A stretch of 64,000 nt of DNA from Eledone cirrhosa (Eukaryota). Both the position numbers and the translations under genes were made by a program. Numbering within the stretch: position 1 is the first letter of the stretch; each line of letters starts with the position of its first letter. The DNA lies in assembly GCA_964016885.1 (NCBI GenBank), contig OZ024747.1, forward strand, positions 54,746,001 through 54,810,000, in the 5' to 3' direction. The notes beneath the pieces were generated by a model that worked only from the letters and a program-made list of their open reading frames with translations, was not told the DNA's origin and did not search any database. This document shows positions 17,981 to 56,960 of this stretch, in pieces.

Positions 17981-19857
17981 AATTTACTGCCTAAGTGCCA
18001 GCCACAAAAATAAAATATCAACAGTGTTTCCTCGTTTATTCATCAGTTTATACTCGTATATCTCCAAACACTTTAGTTGAACATATATCGAATACAAAAT
18101 CTGCCATACATCTTTATTACTGAAATAAATTTGTTGCATTTGTTGTCTCCCTTCTTCTTGCTAATACAAGTTGATCTGATCTGACATTCTTACATGTGTG
18201 TGTGTGTGTCCGTGTGAGGTTATGTGTGTGTATTTGAGTGTGTGAGGGGGGGGGGGTGATTGCGTTGTGTGGTCGTGTGCGTGTGTGTGTGTGCCTGTGT
18301 GTGTGCGCGTATGTGCGAATGTGTGTGTGTGCGTGTGTGTGTATGTGTCAATACTTTGTTACTGCAATCTTACAAAGTTATTTAATTATATTTTCAAACT
18401 CACTTATATTTCAATCTAACGTAAATTCACCAAGACAAAGTAGCGCTACATTATTCATCAGACATCAAAATCTCATGTAATATTTATAAGAAGTCTTGCC
18501 ATTTTCGCGGTTCTTCTCTAGAAGAAACATATTTACCATTGTAAATTCTGCACGAAGATCATTTAACTTCACATTTCTCGTCAGAAGATTTGGAAACTAC
18601 GATAAAATATCTATATATTTTAGTAGGTAAAATTAACCAACAAATGATTTATATTGCTTTAAAGAAGTATTTCTAAATATGTGCACCTCGGCAAACTATT
18701 GTGTCGAGAGATGTAATTAGTTACACTGGGATATAGTAATGTTATATTTCAAAATGTGAAAAATATAGATTGAATTCGTAATAAAGTTTACGTATGACTG
18801 CAAATGTGTGAAACAGGTGAACTAAAAATGATAACATTGCTAAAATAGCCTAAAATCTCTCAAAATCTAACTACTTCCGCGATTTTGTTCACACAAACTT
18901 AAACTCAATCCCGGGGAATTTGCAAAGGCGCTGTTCCATGCGTTTAACTGACGCATATATTCACACATTTTCTTAAATTCACAGTCAATATTGTTATAAA
19001 TCGTAAACACCGTATTTCTGACCTAAGCTGAATGCAATTACGGAGTCAGGTCAATATCTCATTTCGATACAAAATAGTTGTTAAAGGAAAACTATACATG
19101 GTAGAGATAGAATCGAAAGGAGAGGTTGTTAAGATGTATATTGGATTTACCGAGAATATTTTTTAAATCGAGATAAACACATATTATTTTAATTTCTTAT
19201 TTGTTACAATGCTACATCATTTTCAAAATACATTTAGTTCTAAAAGACCGAGTATAACATAACCAAATATGTAAAGGTGCAATATTGCAAATCTAAACTC
19301 CTTGAGTGACCACAGTAGTCAATGTCATGTATGTATAACTAGATAGCTCAAGGTTCTGTCTCTGCCTGACCACATCTTAAACATGTGCGAGGAAACCGTC
19401 TTTTCTTTCTCCATGTAAATATATACAAACTTGATGATTGCAAAACTTACCGTACAAATGGATTTTGAACTGGTGATCGTCTGTACTTACATCCGACACC
19501 TGGATGGCAAGTGGTTTGGGAAGAAACCCAAGTTGACATTTATACTAAAGGTTGATTAACATGTTTAGTACAAATGATGCGTCTTTAAGAAAGACATGCT
19601 AATTCGTGAACTGCGTGAAAGGGTGTATTAAGAAAAACACATGGAAAGCCAAAGATAAACATTGTCCCAAACGTCGATTTTCAATACCAGGTCTAGAACA
19701 ATTTACTTTGAATTAAAATTGCAGTAGAGGAGAAACCAATCCTATATCGTGATCGATATTAATGAATGAATCGTATATAAATTCTACCATGGCCGAATCG
19801 AACTGCTTTATCTAGCAGCACACTGCCTGCTAATGTCCACACTTACTACCCTCCTGT

Positions 19858-19880
19858 TGATAGCCAATCACGTGACAGTT
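19858..19880. promoter_or_regulatory. Candidate promoter element: overlapping CCAAT box and E-box
   Basis: AGCCAATCACGTGAC lies in non-repetitive sequence, with a GAA|GTAAGT donor-like site about 170 bp downstream (about 20043). Confidence 0.3.
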
Positions 19881-20088
19881 CTTCCATTTGATATTTTCAC
19901 TGATAGCGAACAAGGAAAATGTTGCTGCTTTGAATTTTCATTTTCTGTCTTGACTGAGAAAAGTCTCCTGGCGATTTGAGATTTCTCACAATAATCGGAG
20001 TATTATCATTTCTCTCAAAGAAACTGCAGTAGGGACATTGAAGTAAGTAGAGAGTTTTTTTTCATTTTGTTTGCTTTTTCCAGAGATG

Positions 20089-20133
<45 letters not shown>

Positions 20134-20151
20134 ATATTAAATAAATGGAAA

Positions 20152-20258
20152 CTATATTTATAAAACCATATTTATTTTATTATATATATTTCAAGGGCAA
20201 CCAAGACAACATTGGTACGCTTTCATCAGATAAAATACAAAGTTTGTTTTATAAATAG
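20152..20258 (-). ncRNA. Type-I hammerhead ribozyme motif (family C) in a cassette between two (TA)n tracts
   Basis: Minus strand: TATTTTAT-CTGATGA-AAGCGTACCAA..TTGGTTGCCCTT-GAAA-TATATATA-ATAAAATA. Stem I is 8 bp with a 12-bp distal extension (TATTTATAAAAC/GTTTTATAAATA), stem II is imperfect, stem III is palindromic, and the predicted site is AUA. Confidence 0.7.
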
Positions 20259-20304
20259 AGACATACCCATGAAAATCATACCTTATCCGTTGGAAATTCA
20301 CTGG

Positions 20305-20345
<41 letters not shown>

Positions 20346-20406
20346 GTAGAACACTGGAACGTAATATCCGTAGTGGTAGAGCACTCAGTCCAGGGGACGA
20401 GTTAGG

Positions 20407-20558
20407 TAGAAGTGTTTACAGAACAGTTAGTTCACCATCTCGTAATGGACATGGTTATACGGTTATCCCTATAACCATGTCTATTACGAGCGGAGGATTC
20501 GCTAATGTGAAACAATTGTTCTCGGTATGGTGAACTAACGGTTGTGTAACCACTTCTA
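20407..20558. repeat. Fold-back inverted repeat with a 36-nt asymmetric insert resembling a degenerate hammerhead
   Basis: Outer arms are about 20407-20438 and 20527-20558, inner arms about 20440-20460 and 20470-20490. The right arm alone has CGAG-CGGAGGA-..-GAAACAATTGTT-CTCG. Confidence 0.75.
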
Positions 20559-20580
20559 TATATATATATATATATATATA

Positions 20581-21384
20581 TAAGTATGTGTACATACATA
20601 CATATATGTATACAGACGGACAGTAGTATGTATATATATACATACATGCAAACATATATATATGTACGTATGGATTTACCGAACATTTATTATAATGCTC
20701 GGTTTGTTTGTAAACAAACATCCTAAATTAAGCCGTACAGTGTTTAGCAACCATCGTTGCCCTTTTGTACAACACTGACAAAGGAACGATGTACTAGTTT
20801 CACGCTTATTAGCTCTCGTCAGCACCGTATACCTTCCTGACAGATGATTGAACGTCTGAAAGTATATACTTTCCTTATGCATATTAACGGCTGAGCAGCC
20901 TAATTTGCATATCGAGTGAGTTAATCGAAAACGATAAATGGAAAAAATGAAACGAAATTTCATTTCTCACTCTTAGTACGGCTGTTACTTAAATTTAAGT
21001 ATGTATACGTACATACATATATGTATACAGACGTACAGTAGTATGTATATATATACATACATGCATATATATATATACATGTACGTATGGATTTACCGAA
21101 CATTTATTATAATGCTCGGTTTGTTTGTAAACAATGATCCCGAATTAAGCCGTACAGTGTTTAGCTTAATTCGGGATGTTTGTTTACAAACAAACCGAGC
21201 ATTATAATAAATGTTCGGTAAAACCATACGTACATATATATATATGTGTGTGTGCAAGTATGTATATATAAACATACTACTGTACGTCTGTATACATATA
21301 TGTATGTACGTATACATACTTATATTTAAGTAACAGCCGTTCTAAGAGTGAGAAATGAAACTTCGTTTCCCTTTTTCCATTTAT
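20581..21384. mobile_element. Non-coding HHR cassette family A: about 415-bp monomer x1.4, then an inverted fold-back, flanked by (TA)n (retrozyme / Penelope pLTR-like)
   Basis: Direct repeats start at 20581 and 20996. Inverted arms are about 20934-21150 and 21164-21384 with a 13-nt spacer. Contains an HHR and an ATGCAAAT octamer. Confidence 0.8.
20786..20828 (-). ncRNA. Minimal type-I hammerhead ribozyme (family A)
   Basis: ACGGTG-CTGACGA-GAGCTAATAAGCGT-GAAAC-TA-GTA-CATCGT. Stem I is 6 bp, stem II is weak, stem III is the palindrome ACTAGT, and the predicted site is GUA. Confidence 0.8.
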
Positions 21385-21693
21385 ATATATATATATATAT
21401 ATAAAAACAAATAACGAAACGAAATTAAATTTCGTTTCGTTTGTAACTCACTTTTGTATGACTGACGCTTAAACAAAGTTAAAAATGTACATCCACATAT
21501 GTATACTGAAATACTAGTATGCATATGAATACACACACGTATACATATGTAGATGTACCAAGTTTTTCACTGGTCACTTTACTGTGAGTGTCCAGCTATT
21601 CTGCATGTAAACACACAGACAAACCGGTTTTTAGAGTCATACTGGTTTTTGAGGAAACACCTTTCCTCTATTCTCCAGAAAGCCAGACAAGGA

Positions 21694-21736
21694 ACATTGA
21701 ACTAGTTTCGTTGTTGTTACAACTCATCAGCAATAT
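21694..21736 (-). ncRNA. Minimal type-I hammerhead ribozyme (family B, left arm)
   Basis: ATATTG-CTGATGA-GTTGT-AACA-ACAAC-GAAAC-TA-GTT-CAATGT. Canonical core, 5-bp stem II, palindromic ACTAGT stem III, predicted GUU site. Confidence 0.88.
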
Positions 21737-22455
21737 TTACCTATCTTCCGGCCTTTCTGGAGAATCGTAAAAGCACATATCGTTATATGCTTTTTCTATG
21801 AAAATTAGTAGTGGGCAGACTAATTTGCATAGAGCGTGAGTACGTACCGGTTCAACGGAGACGATAAAAACAAATAACGAAACGAAATTAAATTTCGTTT
21901 CGTTTGTAACTCACTTTTGTATGACTGACGCTTAAACAATTAAGTTAAAAATGTACATCCACATATGTATACTGAAATACTAGTATGCATATGAATACAC
22001 ACACGTATACATATGTAGATGTACCAAGTTTTTCACTGGTCACTTTACTGTGAGTGTCCAGCTATTCTGTATGTAAACACACAGACAAACCGGTTTTTAG
22101 AGTCATACTGGTTTTTTACATACAGAATAGCTGGACACTCACAGTAAAGTGACCAGTGAAAAACTCGGTACATCTACATATGTATACGTGTGTGTATTCA
22201 TATGCATACTAGTATTTCAGTATACATATGTGGATGTACATTTTTAACTTAATTGTTTAAGCGTCAGTCATACAAAAGTGAGTTACAAACGAAACGAAAT
22301 TTAATTTCGTTTCGTTATTTGTTTTTATCGTCTCCGTTGAACCGGTACGTACTCACCCTCTATGCAAATTAGTCTGCCCACTACTAATTTTCATAGAAAA
22401 AGCATATAACGATATGTGCTTTTACGATACTCCAGAAAGGCCGGAAGATAGGTAA

Positions 22456-22498
22456 ATATTGCTGATGAGTTGTAACAACAACGAAACTAGTTCAATGT
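22456..22498 (+). ncRNA. Minimal type-I hammerhead ribozyme (family B, right arm)
   Basis: Identical motif ATATTGCTGATGAGTTGTAACAACAACGAAACTAGTTCAATGT on the plus strand. Confidence 0.88.
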
Positions 22499-22720
22499 TC
22501 CTTGTCTGGCTTTCTGGAGAATAGAAGAAAGGTGTTTCCTCAAAAACCAGTATGACTCTAAAAACCGGTTTGTCTGTGTGTTTGCATACAGAATAGCTGG
22601 ACACTCACAGTAAAGTGACCAGTGAAAAACTTGGTACATCTACATATGTATACGTGTGTGTATTCATATGCATACTAGTATTTCAGTATACATATGTGGA
22701 TGTACATTTTTAACTTAATT

Positions 22721-22794
<74 letters not shown>

Positions 22795-23068
22795 TTGCGC
22801 TTGTGCGAAGCTGTGGATGGGAATTAGGGCTCACAGGGGAACTGGCGAAGGCTTCAAGAACATCACCTTTGTTTGTTCCCTTGTCGTTTTAATTTGGATT
22901 GCCCCGAGAATGTAACCCTAGAATGAAAGAATAAGATCATGACACTGGTTAGGCGGAATCGCGTGATTCCTGTCGTCATCGGAGTACGTATCACAGCCTT
23001 ATCAATAAAGGACTTTAACATCTGAAACTACGTAGCATATTCTTTTTCAATATATGTATATATATTGT

Positions 23069-23256
23069 GCGGTGGATTGGCAGTATCGGTAGAGGGTCGG
23101 ACGCCATGCTTTGACGCATAGAGTTACAGCCCTTGCCATTATGAGTTCAAATCCTGCTGAGGTTTACTTTGCCTTTAATCATTATGGGGTCGATAAAATA
23201 AAGTACCAGTAATACACTGGGTAGTTGCTAGCCTTGTGCCAATAGTATAAACAAAT
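23069..23256 (+). mobile_element. Full-length tRNA-derived SINE
   Basis: GCGGTGGATTGGCAGTATCGG ... GTTCAAATCC ... GGGGTCGATAAAATAAAGTACCAG ... GCCTTGTGCC. Confidence 0.9.
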
Positions 23257-23474
23257 ATACGTATATATATATTACATTTAGAAATGACATCTACTAAGAA
23301 CATTTTCAAAAGTTTGATTTCAGTAGGCATTTCCTGATGATTTCATAAGTATGAAAAAGATCTAGTCCTGTAAAAGTTGTTTTTATAAATATCGTGTCTT
23401 CTAATTTATTGAGTAGTTTATTTAATTGTGGTTCACTAAAAATTATCTTCAGATAATCATTCAGTATCAAATGT

Positions 23475-25230
23475 ATGTATGTTTTTCTGGTTTTATAATT
23501 TCACAAAGTTTTGCCAATATAGAGAGGATTAGTTTCTAACCTAGACACAAGGCTTTCTCACTGGAATTTACACAACATCAACGGGGCAGATATGTATGCT
23601 TGTCTGCATGCAAGCATGTGTAGATATGGATGTTATTTTATGTGTGGATGTGGATGTTTTGAGTTGTATGTGTGCATGTGTATATGCTTTGTATATGTAT
23701 ATGCAGTTATTAGATGCAAAATGTTTGGAATGTTTTACATACTTTTACTGTTCCATTAAGGGATTGTACTTGTAATTTCCTAACTAATTGTGTTCTTTCT
23801 ATTCTTGTGAAGCCTAGCTTCTCAAGATTTGTATTGAGGCAGTTACTAACATACCCCAGTACCCCAATAGTCACAGGCATAAATCTGAAGGTGTAATCAG
23901 GATGGAGTATCTGCAGATTTCTCATCAGTTCTGCATAAATATTCTCCTTCTCGCTAATCTTTGATATTATATTGGCAACTGCTGGGCAGCTAACTTCCAC
24001 TACTGTGCATACTTTCTTTTCCCTATATATCATAATATCTGGGCTTTTATGGCTGCATTTTATTGGGGTTTTTACTGGAACATTCCATCAGTACTCTTTC
24101 ATATTATGTATATAGATGTCTTCCACATTGCTGTAGATTTTAATGATTTTATTATCGGGGCTATCTTTTCTACGGATTGCATTGTACAATGTTTTGGCCA
24201 CTACATTATGCCTCATAGGTAGATAGTACCGCGATGACATCTTTAGACAAATACTGATGACATGTGTGACATCTTCGATGTTAATTCTGCAGAGTCTGCA
24301 CTTGATATCACATCTAGGTGTTTTGCCTGCATCTCTATCTCTTTTGTGAATCAGGTATTTCGTGTTAATTTCCTGTCCTTGGATTGCAAAAGGGTATTTT
24401 TCAAAGTGGGAGCCAATATAGCGGTTGTTGGTCCAAGATAGACTACTTTCCTTATCTATATTACTCTCACTCTGGAGCTTCCTCGCAATATATCCATGGA
24501 TGGTTTTTTGCTGATAAGCATACAGTTTTTCATCCATGGATTCACTGCGATACTGCTGAGTGACTTCCATGGGTGTGAGTTTTTGATTATCACACAGGGA
24601 ATATCACTCGAGGAATTATTTCCCAACTCTCAGGATCTTATCTGTTTCATGCTGACAGACTTGCTCGAGGGACGAGCACCTACGCCTCGAGGTTCGTAGA
24701 TGTTGTCGGAGGGATATGATGCGACATTCAAATGCTGTCTGGACTGATGTTAGGCCTCTGCCTCCCTGCTTACGTTTCAAGTGAAGGTGGACTATGTCAC
24801 TGTTGATGGGGACGTTTCCGGTGTCGTTTAGTATTTTTCGAGTTATAACATCAACTGCTCGGATTTCGTCTATCGTCCAATTGAGTATTCCAAACACACT
24901 GTGAGCCACTGTTTTATTTTGCGCAGAGAGTTCCGATGACCATATCTTTTTTAATCGGGTTACGCGTTCCTTATTACAGATACCATTATAGGATATGTTC
25001 TCATCTATCCCCAGGTACCTATAGCAGTACTAATCCGGTATCGGTGAAAGAGTTAGGCCATTGATGACAATGTTGCTAGATTGGGTTGTTGTTTTTCCCC
25101 ACTTTACAGTCATATAGGAGCATTTATCTTGGCCAAACTCCATTCCTATATCCTTTGAGAACGTTGTAACAAGGTCAATATTTTTCTTCATCCCATCTTG
25201 GCATAGAGGTTCAGATCATCCAGAAAAAAT
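23475..25230 (-). pseudogene. 5'-truncated, frameshifted R4/Dong-clade non-LTR retrotransposon (RT C-terminal half, REL domain, 3' UTR)
   Basis: Fragments FLDDLNLYA, YRYLG, GGRGL, CRLC..EDVTHVISIC, RHN and VVEVSCP..K..Y are spread over ORFs 24616-24909, 24088-24570 and 23710-24033, colinear with the intact element at 53-57 kb. Confidence 0.85.
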
Positions 25231-47702: not shown

Positions 47703-47964
47703 CATATATATCACAGAATAAAGATAATCGGTTTAGCGACTGATTCTCTTTTTCTGTGTGATATCATACTCTGCTGTAAGAGGGCATCGAGTGCTCATAC
47801 GACCTACCGCATACGGGCGCTTTAAGCATCCAACACCAATTATATTTATATATATATGTGTGTGTGTAAATGAAGTAATTCCGTCGGAAAAGTCCAGGAA
47901 AAAAGAGTGCTCTATGTAGGTAACAGAGCTTAATAGTTATGTAATAAACAACATAAGGCAATTA

Positions 47965-48025
47965 TTTCATTTACCAGCGGTTTCTTAAAAGCAAAAAAAT
48001 GTTGCTTTCAATCATCAGAATGAAA
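47965..48025 (-). ncRNA. Type-I hammerhead ribozyme (family D, left arm)
   Basis: TTTCATT-CTGATGA-TTGAAAGCAA-loop-TTGCTTTTAA-GAAAC-CGCTG-GTA-AATGAAA. Stem I is 7 bp, stem II is 10 bp closed by U-A, stem III is 3 bp, and the predicted site is GUA. Confidence 0.8.
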
Positions 48026-48102
48026 AAGTCCTGGCGTATTTATTGACGTTGGATTTACAAAAAACCTTTTAAAATCCAACGTCAATAAATACGCCAGGAT
48101 TT

Positions 48103-48163
48103 TTTCATTCTGATGATTGAAAGCAACATTTTTTTGCTTTTAAGAAACCACTGGTAAATGCAA
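48103..48163 (+). ncRNA. Type-I hammerhead ribozyme (family D, right arm)
   Basis: Same motif on the plus strand with two substitutions. Confidence 0.78.
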
Positions 48164-48203
48164 TAATTGCCTTATGTTGTTTATTACATAACTATATATA
48201 TAT

Positions 48204-48501
48204 ATTTCGTTTCTGAATTTGTTTAGCAAGATTCTTTATCTGAAATCGTGTGTTGAAACCGATATTGTTATACTTTGGGAGGGTCATGTTGCCAGTAATC
48301 CCCAGTCACTGAAGAGCTCACAGAATGTGTGACGAAAGAACTTTGACAATATATAAACAACTATCTGGTTGTGGAACCAACCAACCAACCAGAAATTTGT
48401 AAATTCCTAAATTTATAAATTTATTATAATAAATTGAAGTGAAAGCAACTGGTGCGTGTGTTTCTTATTGGCAACATGACCCTCCCAAAGTATAACAATA
48501 T
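48204..48501. mobile_element. (TA)n-flanked cassette with a 37-bp inverted overlap and an HHR (family E)
   Basis: ATATTGTTATACTTTGGGAGGGTCATGTTGCCAGTAA (48262-48298) is inverted at 48465-48501. Both outer ends abut (TA)n. Confidence 0.75.
48305..48347 (+). ncRNA. Minimal type-I hammerhead ribozyme (family E)
   Basis: GTCA-CTGAAGA-G(C)TCACA-GAATG-TGTGAC-GAAAG-AA-CTT-TGAC. Stem I is 4 bp, stem II has a bulge, stem III is very short, and the predicted site is CUU. Confidence 0.65.
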
Positions 48502-53269: not shown

Positions 53270-56200
53270 ATCATCATTATTATTATTATTATTATTATTA
53301 TTGTTATTGTTATTCCTTGAATCTCAGTCATTGATGTTGGTTAACTGGAAAGTCCGTTGGATTGAATATCAAGCCACTACCTGCAGCCTCAGATATTCAG
53401 GACGTATCGGAGGGTTCTTGCCGTTCCAAGCAAGCATGCCTTTTGAAGCGTTCCAAAAAGCGTGAAGGGGCCGATTTTCTTTAACCATCCCTGGAAACCT
53501 TTGGAGATAGTCCCCAGTGCGCCTATGACAATCGGGATCACTTTGACTTCATGGCAGTTCCAAATCCTTTTCACCTCCCACTTTAGGTCCTGGTATCGGT
53601 TAATTTTCTCCCTCTCCTTCTCTTGCACTCTCGTGTCGAACGGGCAGGCCACATCCACAATCAGGCACGATCTTTTTTCTTTGTCCACAACCACCAGGTC
53701 AGGTCTATTGTGTTCCAGTTTTTTGTCCGTCTGTATCCTAAAATCCCACAGCACCTTCACCTGACTGTTCTCCATCACCGCCTCTGGCCTATGCTCATAC
53801 CATTTCTCAGAGTGTGGTAGATTGTTTACTTTGCACAGGTGCCAGTGGATCACCCTGCCCATCACATCGTGTCTCCAGCCCTTATAGTGGGTCTGGGCTA
53901 GGTGTTTACACTCGGACACAATGTGAGCCACAGTCTCCTCTCTCTCTCTACAGATCCTGCACAGTGGGCTAGCCTCCTCCTTGTAGATATGGTGCTTCAA
54001 CCACTTCGTTTTGAGGGCCTGCTCCTGCGCAGCCATTAGCATTCCTTCTGTAGCCTTTTTGAGGTCTCCTCTTCTCAACCAGTTCCATGTCTGTGGATCT
54101 CTAAATTCAGTTTTCTCAAAGAAGGTACTATGAAGGGATTTTCCCTTAAGGCTGCTCTTCCTCATTGATGTTATTTCCTCCTTGGGTATCCCCTGGCCTA
54201 CTGTCCCCTCCTTCAGTACAGCTCTGAGCATTGGCTCCTTACTATAGGTCACGTATTTGTATAGGTTGTTTTTCTCCATCTGAACACAGTCCTCTATGCT
54301 GATAAGACCTCTTCCACCCTCAGATCTCCTTAGGTAGAGTCTATCGACATCACTCCTCTTGTGGAACATGTTGTAGATAGTCAATAGCTTCCTAGTCTTC
54401 CTATCCATTTCTTTTTGTTCAGCAACATTCCATCTCAGGATTCCCGCACTGTACCTAATAATAGACACAGCTCGGGAATTTACTGCGCTTATGGCATTTC
54501 TGCTGTTCAGATGTGACTTCAATACGCTCCTTACTCTCCGAATGTATTCAGTTCTTAACAATTCCTTCATTTTTTTGTTCTTTATGCCATCAGCCTCCAG
54601 AACGCCCAAATACTTGTATCCTTCCTCAGAGTCAATTTCCTTTATCATCTCACCTGTTGGTATCTGGATCCCGTTACTTCTGCTCAACCTACCCCTCCTC
54701 ATCACAATGACTCCACATTTACCAATACCAAACTGCATACATATATCACTGCTGAAAATACGGACAGTGTCAACAAGCACATCCAACTCCTTCTCACTTT
54801 TCCCGAAGAGCTTAAGATCGTCCATGAAGAGGAGGTGATTGATGGTAAGCTCTCCCCTTCCCAACTTGTATCCTGCTCTCACTTTTCGCAGCATAATGGT
54901 CAAGGGCATCAGGGCAACGACAAACAACAGAGGGGACAGGCTATCTCCCTGGAAGATACCTCTCTTGATCTTCACGCTTCCCAAGGATACTCCAGTTGAT
55001 GTCAACTCTGTCTCCCAGGACCCCATACTCCTGCCCAGCAACTGTCTGATGTTATCTGCCACCCTGAAGATCTCCAGGCTTTTGGTGATCCAGGAATGAG
55101 GCACCATGTCAAATGCCTTTCTGTAGTCTATCCATCCCATGGCAAGATCAGTGTGTCTCCTCCTGCAATTCCCCATTACCATCTTATCAATAAGCAACTG
55201 GTCCTTTGTACCACGTGACTTCCTTCGGCATCCTTTCTGTTCGTCCGGCAACAAGTTGTTTGTGTGGAGGTGATGGTAGATTTCCTCAGACACAATGCTC
55301 GTCAACAGTTTCCACATTACGGGCAGACATGTGATAGGTCTATAGTTGGTAACATCATTACCCTTGATTCGGTCTTTCATTATCAGAACTGTGGTACCTT
55401 TTGTCAACCACTCTGGCACCTCACCCGACACCAAGCAGTCATTGAACATGGCCGTCAGCTTCGGGTGGAGGGATGTTAAATGTTTAATCCAATACCCCTG
55501 CACACCATCTGGGCCTGGTGATTTCCAGTTGGTTAGTTTTTTGGCTTGCCCCTTAAGAGTTTCAACTGTGATACTCAAATCAGTCTGTTTCTGTGCCTGC
55601 TCACCGATCTCCCTCTGTACTGTCTCAATCCACCCTGCCTGGGCATTGTGTCTAACATCCTGCTCCCATATTCCTCTCCAGAATGTTTTAGCTTGTTCCG
55701 CCCCAGGGATCAAGTCGTTGCCTCTTTCTTTCCCCTCAAGCTGTCCAAACAGCATCTTCTGGTTGTTGTCGAACATGCGGTTCTGTTTATACTGACTGAC
55801 TCTGTTCTCGTATCGCCTGATTTTGGCACTCTTTGCTACAATGCGTTGCTTCAATTCCTCTATGATAATATTTAGCTTTTTACTCCTAGTTTTGTATTTT
55901 ATTTCCAGTCTATTTTTAGTGCCTATGTTTTTTAGTGTCCCATTCAGTAGTGACTCAAGCTTTCCTATGTCATTTCTCATTTCCCCGATTTGCCCACTCA
56001 GTCGCTTCCTCCACCACGGCTCTGCTCTTTCTTGTCTGTTGTTTCCTCTCGCTTTTATACCAAGTAGTTTCCTCACCGTATTTGCTGTTGCTTTGAGGAT
56101 ATTGTTGCACTGGTGAAGACTCCTCGCCTCAAGGTATGGGATGACTTTGTTTACCTTAGCTGTTGTTTCTTTTAACTTTTTCCTGTCTACAAATCTTAGG

Positions 56201-56960
56201 TTCATAGGTCTCCCACTATCATTGTTCAACTCATCTACCACTAAATTTAGGATGTCAACCGAATCTTGTCCTAGCCCGTCAGCATTCATCTCCTCAGTGG
56301 CCGTATCTCTGTTCCAGGTATTATTTATCTCAGTATTCAGATCATTGTCTGCTTCGGGTGGTTCCTCCGTTCTCAGGACCTCCTCACCTTCATTTCCCGC
56401 CGGCTCGCTTGTCTGGCATACTACACCCGCCATCTCCAAGCCATTCTCTCTGCTCAGTTCCTCCAGTTCCAGCTCGCTTATCCACCCATTAGTTCTTATT
56501 ACCCGAGCCTGCCCGGCCAATTTTTGTTCATCTAATTTAAATAAACCAATCTCGTTCCAGATGTTATGCATCCGTCTCCTGTAGCCCCTCTCCTTGGGGT
56601 TACTTTTCAGGTAGCATTGCATAACAGTTCTATTCAATTCTTTCGTCCAGTTGGTTCTGGCCCCTTTCCTTCTTCTTCTTCCTCCAACATCAGCAGTATT
56701 TGGTTGACAGTCAGGTTCCTGCTGCTGAGCCAGGGGGCACCTGTTGGGTGAGAGTCTGTCACATGACGTTCTAGTCTCCATTTCACCGTTATTCGAACTG
56801 TTTATGTTCGATATTTAAACACTCTTATCGAGGATTGGCGAATGTATGTTTACATAGCCATCTGTGGATCCGCCATCCCACTTGGCCCTTGTGTGGCATT
56901 ATCACCACGCTGTATACGGACACACATAAACAAACAAACACACGGGCAGAAAGGGCCCCA
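53270..56960 (-). mobile_element. Probably full-length R4/Dong-type LINE with a short 3' UTR ending in (TAA)n
   Basis: An approximately 75-nt 3' UTR follows the stop, then AATAACAATAACAATAATAAT.... Dong-type R4 elements are known to target (TAA)n. The 5' boundary is uncertain. Confidence 0.8.
53389..56781 (-). CDS. Intact 1130-aa RT plus REL endonuclease protein of an R4/Dong-clade non-LTR retrotransposon
   Basis: N-terminal WTxExNxxVMxCY..GYRRRM motif. RT motifs SPGPDG, NYRPITCL, IDYRKAFD, GIFQGDSLSP, FMDD, YKYLG and GGRGL. CCHC motif CRIC..H..EC, RHD and nuclease motif PD..D..K. Confidence 0.95.
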   Translation of the reverse strand: METRTSCDRLSPNRCPLAQQQEPDCQPNTADVGGRRRRKGARTNWTKELNRTVMQCYLKSNPKERGYRRRMHNIWNEIGLFKLDEQKLAGQARVIRTNGWISELELEELSRENGLEMAGVVCQTSEPAGNEGEEVLRTEEPPEADNDLNTEINNTWNRDTATEEMNADGLGQDSVDILNLVVDELNNDSGRPMNLRFVDRKKLKETTAKVNKVIPYLEARSLHQCNNILKATANTVRKLLGIKARGNNRQERAEPWWRKRLSGQIGEMRNDIGKLESLLNGTLKNIGTKNRLEIKYKTRSKKLNIIIEELKQRIVAKSAKIRRYENRVSQYKQNRMFDNNQKMLFGQLEGKERGNDLIPGAEQAKTFWRGIWEQDVRHNAQAGWIETVQREIGEQAQKQTDLSITVETLKGQAKKLTNWKSPGPDGVQGYWIKHLTSLHPKLTAMFNDCLVSGEVPEWLTKGTTVLIMKDRIKGNDVTNYRPITCLPVMWKLLTSIVSEEIYHHLHTNNLLPDEQKGCRRKSRGTKDQLLIDKMVMGNCRRRHTDLAMGWIDYRKAFDMVPHSWITKSLEIFRVADNIRQLLGRSMGSWETELTSTGVSLGSVKIKRGIFQGDSLSPLLFVVALMPLTIMLRKVRAGYKLGRGELTINHLLFMDDLKLFGKSEKELDVLVDTVRIFSSDICMQFGIGKCGVIVMRRGRLSRSNGIQIPTGEMIKEIDSEEGYKYLGVLEADGIKNKKMKELLRTEYIRRVRSVLKSHLNSRNAISAVNSRAVSIIRYSAGILRWNVAEQKEMDRKTRKLLTIYNMFHKRSDVDRLYLRRSEGGRGLISIEDCVQMEKNNLYKYVTYSKEPMLRAVLKEGTVGQGIPKEEITSMRKSSLKGKSLHSTFFEKTEFRDPQTWNWLRRGDLKKATEGMLMAAQEQALKTKWLKHHIYKEEASPLCRICREREETVAHIVSECKHLAQTHYKGWRHDVMGRVIHWHLCKVNNLPHSEKWYEHRPEAVMENSQVKVLWDFRIQTDKKLEHNRPDLVVVDKEKRSCLIVDVACPFDTRVQEKEREKINRYQDLKWEVKRIWNCHEVKVIPIVIGALGTISKGFQGWLKKIGPFTLFGTLQKACLLGTARTLRYVLNI

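Follow-up and report, generated by a model that had tools for sequence, protein, structure and literature searches.

A stack of hammerhead-bearing repeats in one (TA)n tract of Eledone cirrhosa, with a Penelope-type insertion footprint on coding and non-coding families

The locus

In the microsatellite-rich, 3.0-Gb assembly of Eledone cirrhosa (GCA_964016885.1), we analysed a window of 64 kb (contig OZ024747.1, positions 54746001-54810000; all coordinates below are those of the window unless a locus is named), in which the region 20090-22790 holds four cassettes, F1 to F4, with (TA)n between each. This nest of predicted hammerhead ribozymes had been outlined in a preliminary description made from the letters alone; its cassettes and spacers are found where that description placed them, while its inventory of four was incomplete, a fifth element, F0, having been missed at the left end. 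We consider, with a probability of about 85%, that a single (TA)n tract harbours five dispersed repeats here, that every one of them carries a predicted type-I hammerhead, be it intact or decayed, and that each was separately inserted by the target-primed reverse transcription of Penelope-like elements (PLEs), F3 and F4 being related non-coding units. Two of the five are Penelope stubs, two others are retrozyme-like insertions and the last is a remnant, all of known kinds. The features are as follows.

19790..20090 (ends approximate), plus strand: F0, an older dispersed element, left neighbour of the nest, with its 3' end at the TA tract
19963..20036, plus strand: decayed type-I hammerhead of F0 with an altered core; its stem III reads ACTGCAGT
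20091..20128, no strand: (TA)19 target tract
20130..20308, minus strand: F1, 5'-truncated 3' end, without tail, of a coding Penelope-like element with a Hydra-type linker
20172..20237, minus strand: intact type-I hammerhead motif of F1, core start 20229, predicted cleavage after 20181
20309..20342, no strand: (TA)17 spacer
20342..20558, both arms: F2, a folded-back stub that derives from another coding Penelope-like element
20485..20527, plus strand: degenerate hammerhead of F2, core at 20491 reading CGGAGGA vs CTGAGGA in other copies
20557..20582, no strand: (TA)13 spacer
20581..21384, both arms: F3, fold-back non-coding insertion
20787..20827, minus strand: intact type-I hammerhead motif of F3, core 20822-20816, predicted cleavage after 20792
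21382..21403, no strand: (TA)11 spacer
21401..22725, both arms: F4, fold-back non-coding insertion
21693..21737, minus strand: intact type-I hammerhead motif of F4, core start 21730, predicted cleavage after 21700
21823..21830, minus strand: octamer-like ATGCAAAT following closely on the F4 unit's tail, candidate promoter element
22455..22499, plus strand: intact type-I hammerhead motif of the inverted arm of F4, core start 22462, predicted cleavage after 22492
22724..22791, no strand: (TA)34 target tract
53389-56811, minus strand: uninterrupted 1140-aa frame of the long interspersed nuclear element (LINE) type, with RVT_1 and a weak zf-RVT match

In the nest, F2, F3 and F4 all have a fold-back (inverted) structure. 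F2 runs from a 65-nt tail through a short minus arm, whose ribozyme is gone through a 36-nt deletion, to a plus arm without tail at its end. A reading of its left end as a tRNA-derived short interspersed nuclear element (SINE) was rejected, this end being the 65-nt tail. F3 comprises a 417-nt unit and a partial unit (minus), then an inverted 5'-truncated arm and a 63-nt tail (21321-21384). F4 starts with its tail (21401-21470), continues with a 463-nt unit and a partial unit to 22116 (minus) and closes with an inverted arm lacking a tail (22115-22725). Ribozymes of the same family never stand in tandem within one nest arm, and F4 has one motif on each strand, so that the nest is not a unit; with at most one ribozyme per arm, the window copies do not by themselves have the retrozyme layout. 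Regarding F0, its 191 candidate copies have a common terminal base and lie mostly ahead of TA; the hammerhead core, changed in the window copy, is intact at 8 of 13 other loci, and an inverted pair was seen once (L321/L324). A search for an empty allele of the nest site with the left flank, which is itself element F0, found none.

All four cassettes proved to be multi-copy and none single-copy, a first look in which 40 candidates were scored per cassette giving 1326 candidates for F1, 831 for F2, 1751 for F3 and 313 for F4. Identity to the nearest copies differs from one element to the next (about 80% for F0, 99% for F1, 93-95% for F2, 93% for F3 and 99% for F4) and hence points to separate insertion events.

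The hammerhead motifs

A descriptor scan returned four intact type-I hammerhead motifs in the nest, vs a single match in total when 1000 dinucleotide shuffles of 20090-22790 were passed through the identical scan. The four motifs combine a CUGANGA and GAAA core, a UH cleavage site and three stems, while the cores of the window copies of F0 and F2 are changed. The four well-formed motifs and one degenerate motif announced earlier are confirmed; the stem III sequences are short and palindromic, as had been said, and the attribution to the Penelope/retrozyme type also holds. Moreover, the Rfam family HH9 matches below threshold on both F4 motifs (34 bits, E 4e-6, cut-off 52) and on F3 (19.5 bits), and the inverted-arm motif of F4 (22455..22499) folds better than its shuffles (z -5.0). 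The many sub-threshold microRNA matches in Rfam were set aside as hairpin and low-complexity artefacts. Stem covariation among genomic copies, which the preliminary description had made a test of its reading, was found in 20 F3/F4/F6 motif variants hand-picked from 44 (F6 being a relative of F3 and F4), with 7 of 12 pairs changed on both sides and 92.9% of cells paired vs 22-45% in slid controls, a signal that stems mostly from the split between F3 and F4 and is inflated by related sequences.

The short palindromic stem III suggests that these ribozymes would cleave as dimers or with the help of a protein. Lunse et al. are said to have made a fuller study of dimeric cleavage in short Penelope-associated hammerheads. 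Cleavage of such hammerheads as dimers is supported in PMC4209133. More than 12 further hammerhead variants were met by chance in the flanks of fetched loci, nearly all with a short and often palindromic stem III.

F1 and F2 as ends of coding elements

Judged from their sequence, F1 and F2 are 5'-truncated 3' ends of protein-coding PLEs with a reverse transcriptase (RT), a GIY-YIG-like endonuclease (EN) and a Hydra-type linker. Indeed, longer copies of F1 extend through an AT-rich untranslated region (UTR) of about 1.2 kb into a GIY-YIG-like EN frame: across the 24 loci found with this frame, the query locus being left out, 12 link the frame and F1 in one alignment and 16 do so when gaps are allowed, the remaining 8 ending short. 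For F2, 18 of 28 longer copies start at the 3' end and enter an RT/EN frame, which stops about 240 nt upstream, by 150 nt or more; searched with a protein fragment of the F2 family, 440 homologs come up at E<=1e-10, and PF26215 is found in many of them. Both families thus have one open reading frame (ORF) with RT plus, at its C terminus, a GIY-YIG-like EN upstream of the repeat end, the organization of EN+ PLEs, and both display 5' truncation, partial tandems, an inverted arm and a tail at one end. The linked Penelope RT/GIY-YIG ORFs that the preliminary description proposed to look for are therefore present for F1 and F2, and its view of the cassettes as non-autonomous is kept for the non-coding F3 and F4 only, F1 and F2 continuing into RT/EN frames and having the coding capacity that retrozymes lack.

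The marks of the Hydra clade are a CxCx5C linker, RWK, DKT and (TA)n targeting (PMC8557442). The linker is present in F1 (L170), F2 (L202) and the coding family PLE-A (L160), and RWK and DKT in PLE-A (892-aa frame), the examined F1 and F2 fragments stopping short of that N-terminal part. By the linker and their (TA)n target, these families are of Hydra type and probable members of the Hydra clade. A mostly F2-type ribozyme pattern has 10,099 matches in the genome vs 96 in the control; it fits the F2 type only and gives no count for F1.

No PLE ORF lies in the window, and the earlier statement that no RT is encoded here stands to that extent; however, the 1140-aa ORF at 53389-56811 is an RT of non-Penelope type. 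Elsewhere in the genome, frames of PLE-A reach about 890 aa, long uninterrupted PLE ORFs span 775-894 aa, a Neptune-like family has frames exceeding 1000 aa and a very young Neptune-like family (L302-L309) has 775-aa frames (RVT_1, GIY-YIG) with identical scores at dozens of places. This young family was also seen to have a 4.2-kb tandem unit and its own hammerhead with an AGTACT palindrome, likewise at (TA)n.

F3 and F4 as non-coding units and arrays

The units of F3 and F4 measure 420-480 nt, are non-coding and carry one type-I motif each. They are homologous over about 275 nt, from the tail to the ribozyme, and have a third relative in F6, so that F3 and F4 are not independent in origin and the independence formerly granted to the families has to be given up. 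The exact F3/F4-type ribozyme pattern has 34,888 matches in the genome vs 0 in the reversed control, and the first 30 matches along C1 all fall in F3/F4/F6 units. Out of 76 distinct F3/F4/F6 insertions, 75 are not contiguous with a PLE ORF (70 without a PLE protein match within 400 nt, 5 with one past a TA run), and in the last one (L040) F3 joins a Hydra-type ORF head-to-head over a 5-nt gap. At this junction (L040:1301-1307; L325:6659-6665), a 5'-truncated Hydra-type ORF meets an F3 tandem, itself 5'-truncated, and TA is missing from the gap; this may be a chimeric (two-template) insertion or an insertion with a deletion.

Tandem non-coding units of a few hundred nt with a type-I motif each are one mark of non-LTR (long terminal repeat) retrozymes, and the F3 and F4 families form such arrays of up to 31 units. 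The longest, an F4 array at C1:5738324-5752446, has 31 units and an inverted tailed arm, a tail-less start and TA on both sides. Its 28 full units, once aligned, differ by a mean of 2.3 substitutions among themselves vs 8.2 to dispersed copies, and five changes private to the array are also present in the inverted arm where the two overlap. At L256, multimers occupy both arms, with 12 variable columns of which 10 are private. Private variants common to array and arm, together with the near-identical arms of L256, favour insertion as multimers.

No RNA-labelled sequence data containing the F4 unit are listed. Four runs of unrecorded kind, available as contigs only, cover it and bridge unit end to unit start; we rejected these contigs as a sign of expression, circles or host range since tandem DNA explains the bridging. 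Another non-coding tandem unit, of 310 nt, was noticed at L076:325-1440, with a hammerhead with an ACGCGT palindrome, an inverted arm and a TA anchor.

A shared insertion footprint

Coding and non-coding families leave the same marks at their ends. Each family has a pair of fixed 3' ends that lie 62-100 nt from one another (62-95 nt in F1 to F4), and a few TA-like bases mark the junction at both. Counted over de-duplicated contexts, TA stands outside the 3' ends in 36/40 cases for F1, 69/78 for F2 and 23/27 for PLE-A, and outside the tail-less ends in 11/13 for F4 and 52/62 for F3, the background TA rate being 10.5% (the one figure for which a count without de-duplication was used). The tailed F3/F4 contexts without TA, among those printed, are mostly internal unit junctions; TA being absent where unit meets unit, it belongs to the target and not to the element. 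The preference for (TA)n that had been suggested is thus common to all families.

In inverted insertions, exactly one tail is found in 35 of 37 outward end pairs (F4 9, F3 11/13, F1 2, F2 9, PLE-A 4), both exceptions being artefacts: a low-complexity match at L087 and, at L225, a mis-paired span that has in fact one tail. Another 17 F2 pairs were kept apart, the query itself having had an inverted architecture. A one-sided tail with an inverted truncated copy has been described for PLEs (PMC8557442, PMC3846280), and the tail has been mapped in vitro to two RT start sites with extension of both strands (PMC11167929). That the footprint is common to coding and non-coding families is evidence that the retrozyme arrays were likely inserted by Penelope machinery. 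As a separate observation, the tails of F1, F2 and PLE-A contain, 4-8 nt from where they begin, a hairpin of the form ACTC-(8-40 nt)-GAGTGCTC; it is a candidate RT-start signal and occurs there as well as in other stubs (window 47770, L114, L186, L203); it is absent from the tails of F3 and F4.

Mechanism and alternatives

A PLE protein would nick both strands of (TA)n and prime complementary DNA at two RNA start sites, which would yield head-to-head arms with a tail at one end only, early stops leaving short stubs. The RNA of F3 and F4 may be multimeric or circular and use the PLE protein in trans, in which case whole arrays could be laid down in one event. As TA would be left on both sides of every insertion, later elements could land beside earlier ones at background rate. 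We lean slightly towards the further proposal that F3 and F4 live as RNA parasites on Penelope elements, bearing ribozymes and retaining the two RT start sites. In this view, a PLE protein acting as a dimer would prime each strand of a nicked (TA)n from a different start site of a multimeric or circular RNA and write arrays of up to 14 kb in one event.

Several points weigh against these proposals, beside the make-up of the covariation signal given above. At the gathering score, Rfam has 0 matches in the whole window; the motifs of F1, F2 and F3 fold no better than shuffles, and stem II starts with a mismatch in F2 and F3. Only one of nine tested Xenopus retrozyme dimers cleaved (10.64898/2026.07.22.740005). 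A Pfam scan of the Hydra-type proteins gave no RT or GIY-YIG family, and no coding partner with the 3' end of F3/F4 was found among the five families sampled (F1, F2, PLE-A and two Neptune-like). At L032, outside the scripted count, both outward ends have tails, maybe from two insertions. Regarding the arrays, L053 and L051 have 83 and 34 variable columns, in part from poor end alignments, and the variants of the 31-unit array recur as mosaic combinations without decay with distance, which calls either for a template that was mixed or multimeric or for conversion afterwards. A single-circle rolling model for this array is not supported by these mosaic variants.

The mosaic variants, with the repeated b-c-d unit pattern of L257, suggest exchange after insertion and lend some credit to the view that F3 and F4 are stubs of the pseudo-long terminal repeat (pLTR) of a rare coding PLE and that the arrays grew later, satellite-like, by unequal crossover. 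Local amplification from PLE termini has been proposed by Li et al. (10.64898/2026.07.22.740005), and one F3 copy does lie head-to-head with a Hydra-type ORF. However, the unit is a closed circular permutation whose tail leads into the next unit and not into an ORF, 75 of the 76 insertions have no ORF, and near-identical multimers on the two inverted arms of L256 are beyond unequal crossover alone; we hold this origin to be unlikely.

The insertion of F3 and F4 by Penelope machinery also has to be compared with movement as retrozymes by a LINE-type protein (Dong/R4-like or RTE) or by copying at the DNA level. The intact 1140-aa LINE-type RT ORF in the window and the lack of a sequence-level PLE partner among the sampled families would fit such a scheme; nevertheless, the pair of fixed 3' ends, the tail on one side and the head-to-head inversions have been described as PLE signatures and recur in the coding PLEs here, which makes it very improbable.

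In the preliminary description, all cassettes were non-autonomous retrozyme families re-using one special TA landing pad. All families are indeed multi-copy and TA-anchored and the window is without a PLE ORF, but the idea is refuted for F1 and F2, which run on into RT/EN frames, and the neighbours are not enriched. When the nest loci are left out, another family is found across the TA tract from a focal element in 12/316 cases vs 71/2068 sides of other tracts (p=0.74), so that stacking needs no special landing pad; re-use of one pad is not above chance, and we give this explanation very little credence as well. In the window outside the nest, 3 of 184 tract sides are occupied. With 97 tracts per 64 kb and 1.6-3.4% per side, rough arithmetic predicts that a genome would have some 1-10 stacks of four elements, making the nest the rare but expected tail of the distribution. 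It appears to be a chance pile-up through common target preference.

Least credible of all is a functional multi-ribozyme locus, with a minus-strand transcript processed by the F4, F3 and F1 motifs or with F3/F4 heterodimers: the three intact minus-strand motifs and the ACTAGT palindrome common to F3 and F4 speak for it, but stem I cross-pairing between F3 and F4 amounts to two base pairs only, the F0 and F2 motifs are decayed, the differing nearest-copy identities indicate separate events and the F0-F4 combination was seen at no other fetched locus.

Known systems and significance

The coding families resemble the Hydra-clade PLEs described by Craig et al. 2021 (PMC8557442) by their C-terminal EN, CxCx5C linker (F1, F2, PLE-A), RWK/DKT (PLE-A), a hammerhead near the 3' end, (TA)n insertion and partial tandem and inverted copies. 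They differ from that description in being very abundant here (about 10,000 mostly F2-type matches), with 3' UTRs of up to 1.3 kb and elements longer than 3 kb. With metazoan non-LTR retrozymes (Cervera and de la Pena 2020, PMC7229834; Li et al. 2026, 10.64898/2026.07.22.740005), F3 and F4 have in common non-coding units of 420-480 nt with one type-I motif each, a range from monomers to multimers, a low GC content and co-existing PLEs. F3 and F4 differ in showing a full PLE footprint (a TA target, a pair of 3' ends, a tail on one side and an inverted arm), which the relevant passages of those papers do not report for retrozymes; their parent pLTR was not identified among the five coding families sampled.

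The element Poseidon of Anolis, PAc (Frangieh et al. 2024, PMC11167929), offers a likeness in its two RT start sites defining the tail, the extension of both target strands and its AT-rich target. In that account, the RNA start sites have no homology to the target and the tails measure 30-40 nt, whereas here a TA-like overlap of 2-4 nt and tails of 62-100 nt are found. The non-autonomous elements of Chlamys, such as MRC1 (PMC8557442), are also non-coding PLE derivatives with head-to-tail multicopy insertions; their 3' ends are common with autonomous families and their clade is described as lacking canonical hammerheads, whereas F3 and F4 have a ribozyme and no matched partner among the sampled families.

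Both the enzyme that moves animal retrozymes and the origin of their arrays are presented as proposed and unproven (PMC7229834; 10.64898/2026.07.22.740005). Titles and abstracts, with few subscription journals covered, returned no description of the F1-F4 families or of a Penelope footprint on retrozyme arrays; related families may already be present in Repbase/Dfam or in the supplements to Craig et al. and to Li et al. What is added here is the footprint evidence for a likely insertion of retrozyme arrays by Penelope machinery, in a genome with long uninterrupted Penelope ORFs. If F3 and F4 are RNA parasites of PLEs, this would be a direct genomic footprint for the proposed PLE-driven spread of animal retrozymes, with about 35,000 ribozyme copies, and the single chimeric Hydra/F3 junction would point to the partner clade. 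With non-coding families that have a clean Penelope footprint beside young coding families, the mover of retrozymes becomes testable, the RNA ends and the (TA)n target being defined. Moreover, genomes of this sort would have Penelope stubs by the tens of thousands in the guise of short, hairpin-like repeats sited at TA microsatellites, possibly annotated as SINEs or as miniature inverted-repeat transposable elements. The footprint common to coding and non-coding families is the part most worth following.

Candidate promoter words and neighbouring elements

Besides its position in F4, the octamer-like ATGCAAAT, a candidate promoter element, is present at 20903-20910 (F3) and 22362-22369 (plus), and in 57/60 F4 and 41/52 F3 distinct units. 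Such promoter-like words stand some 100 nt upstream of the ribozymes, the octamer in F3, F4 and the F1 UTR and a GCGCATGCGC-like word in F2 and the Neptune-like family.

By eye, the 1140-aa LINE-type frame at 53389-56811 has a restriction-like endonuclease end, and we take it to be Dong/R4-like. Decayed fragments related to it lie at 23710-25029, 1 kb to the right of the nest, and a tRNA-like repeat of SINE type, with matches in many fetched loci, at 23050-23270. A second PLE-type cluster spans 47713-48500, with a tail-only stub (47713-47842) followed by a fold-back with hammerheads at 48018 (minus) and 48110 (plus) and, past a short TA run, by another fold-back (48206-48500, motif 48309) related to the 3' end of a Neptune-like family.

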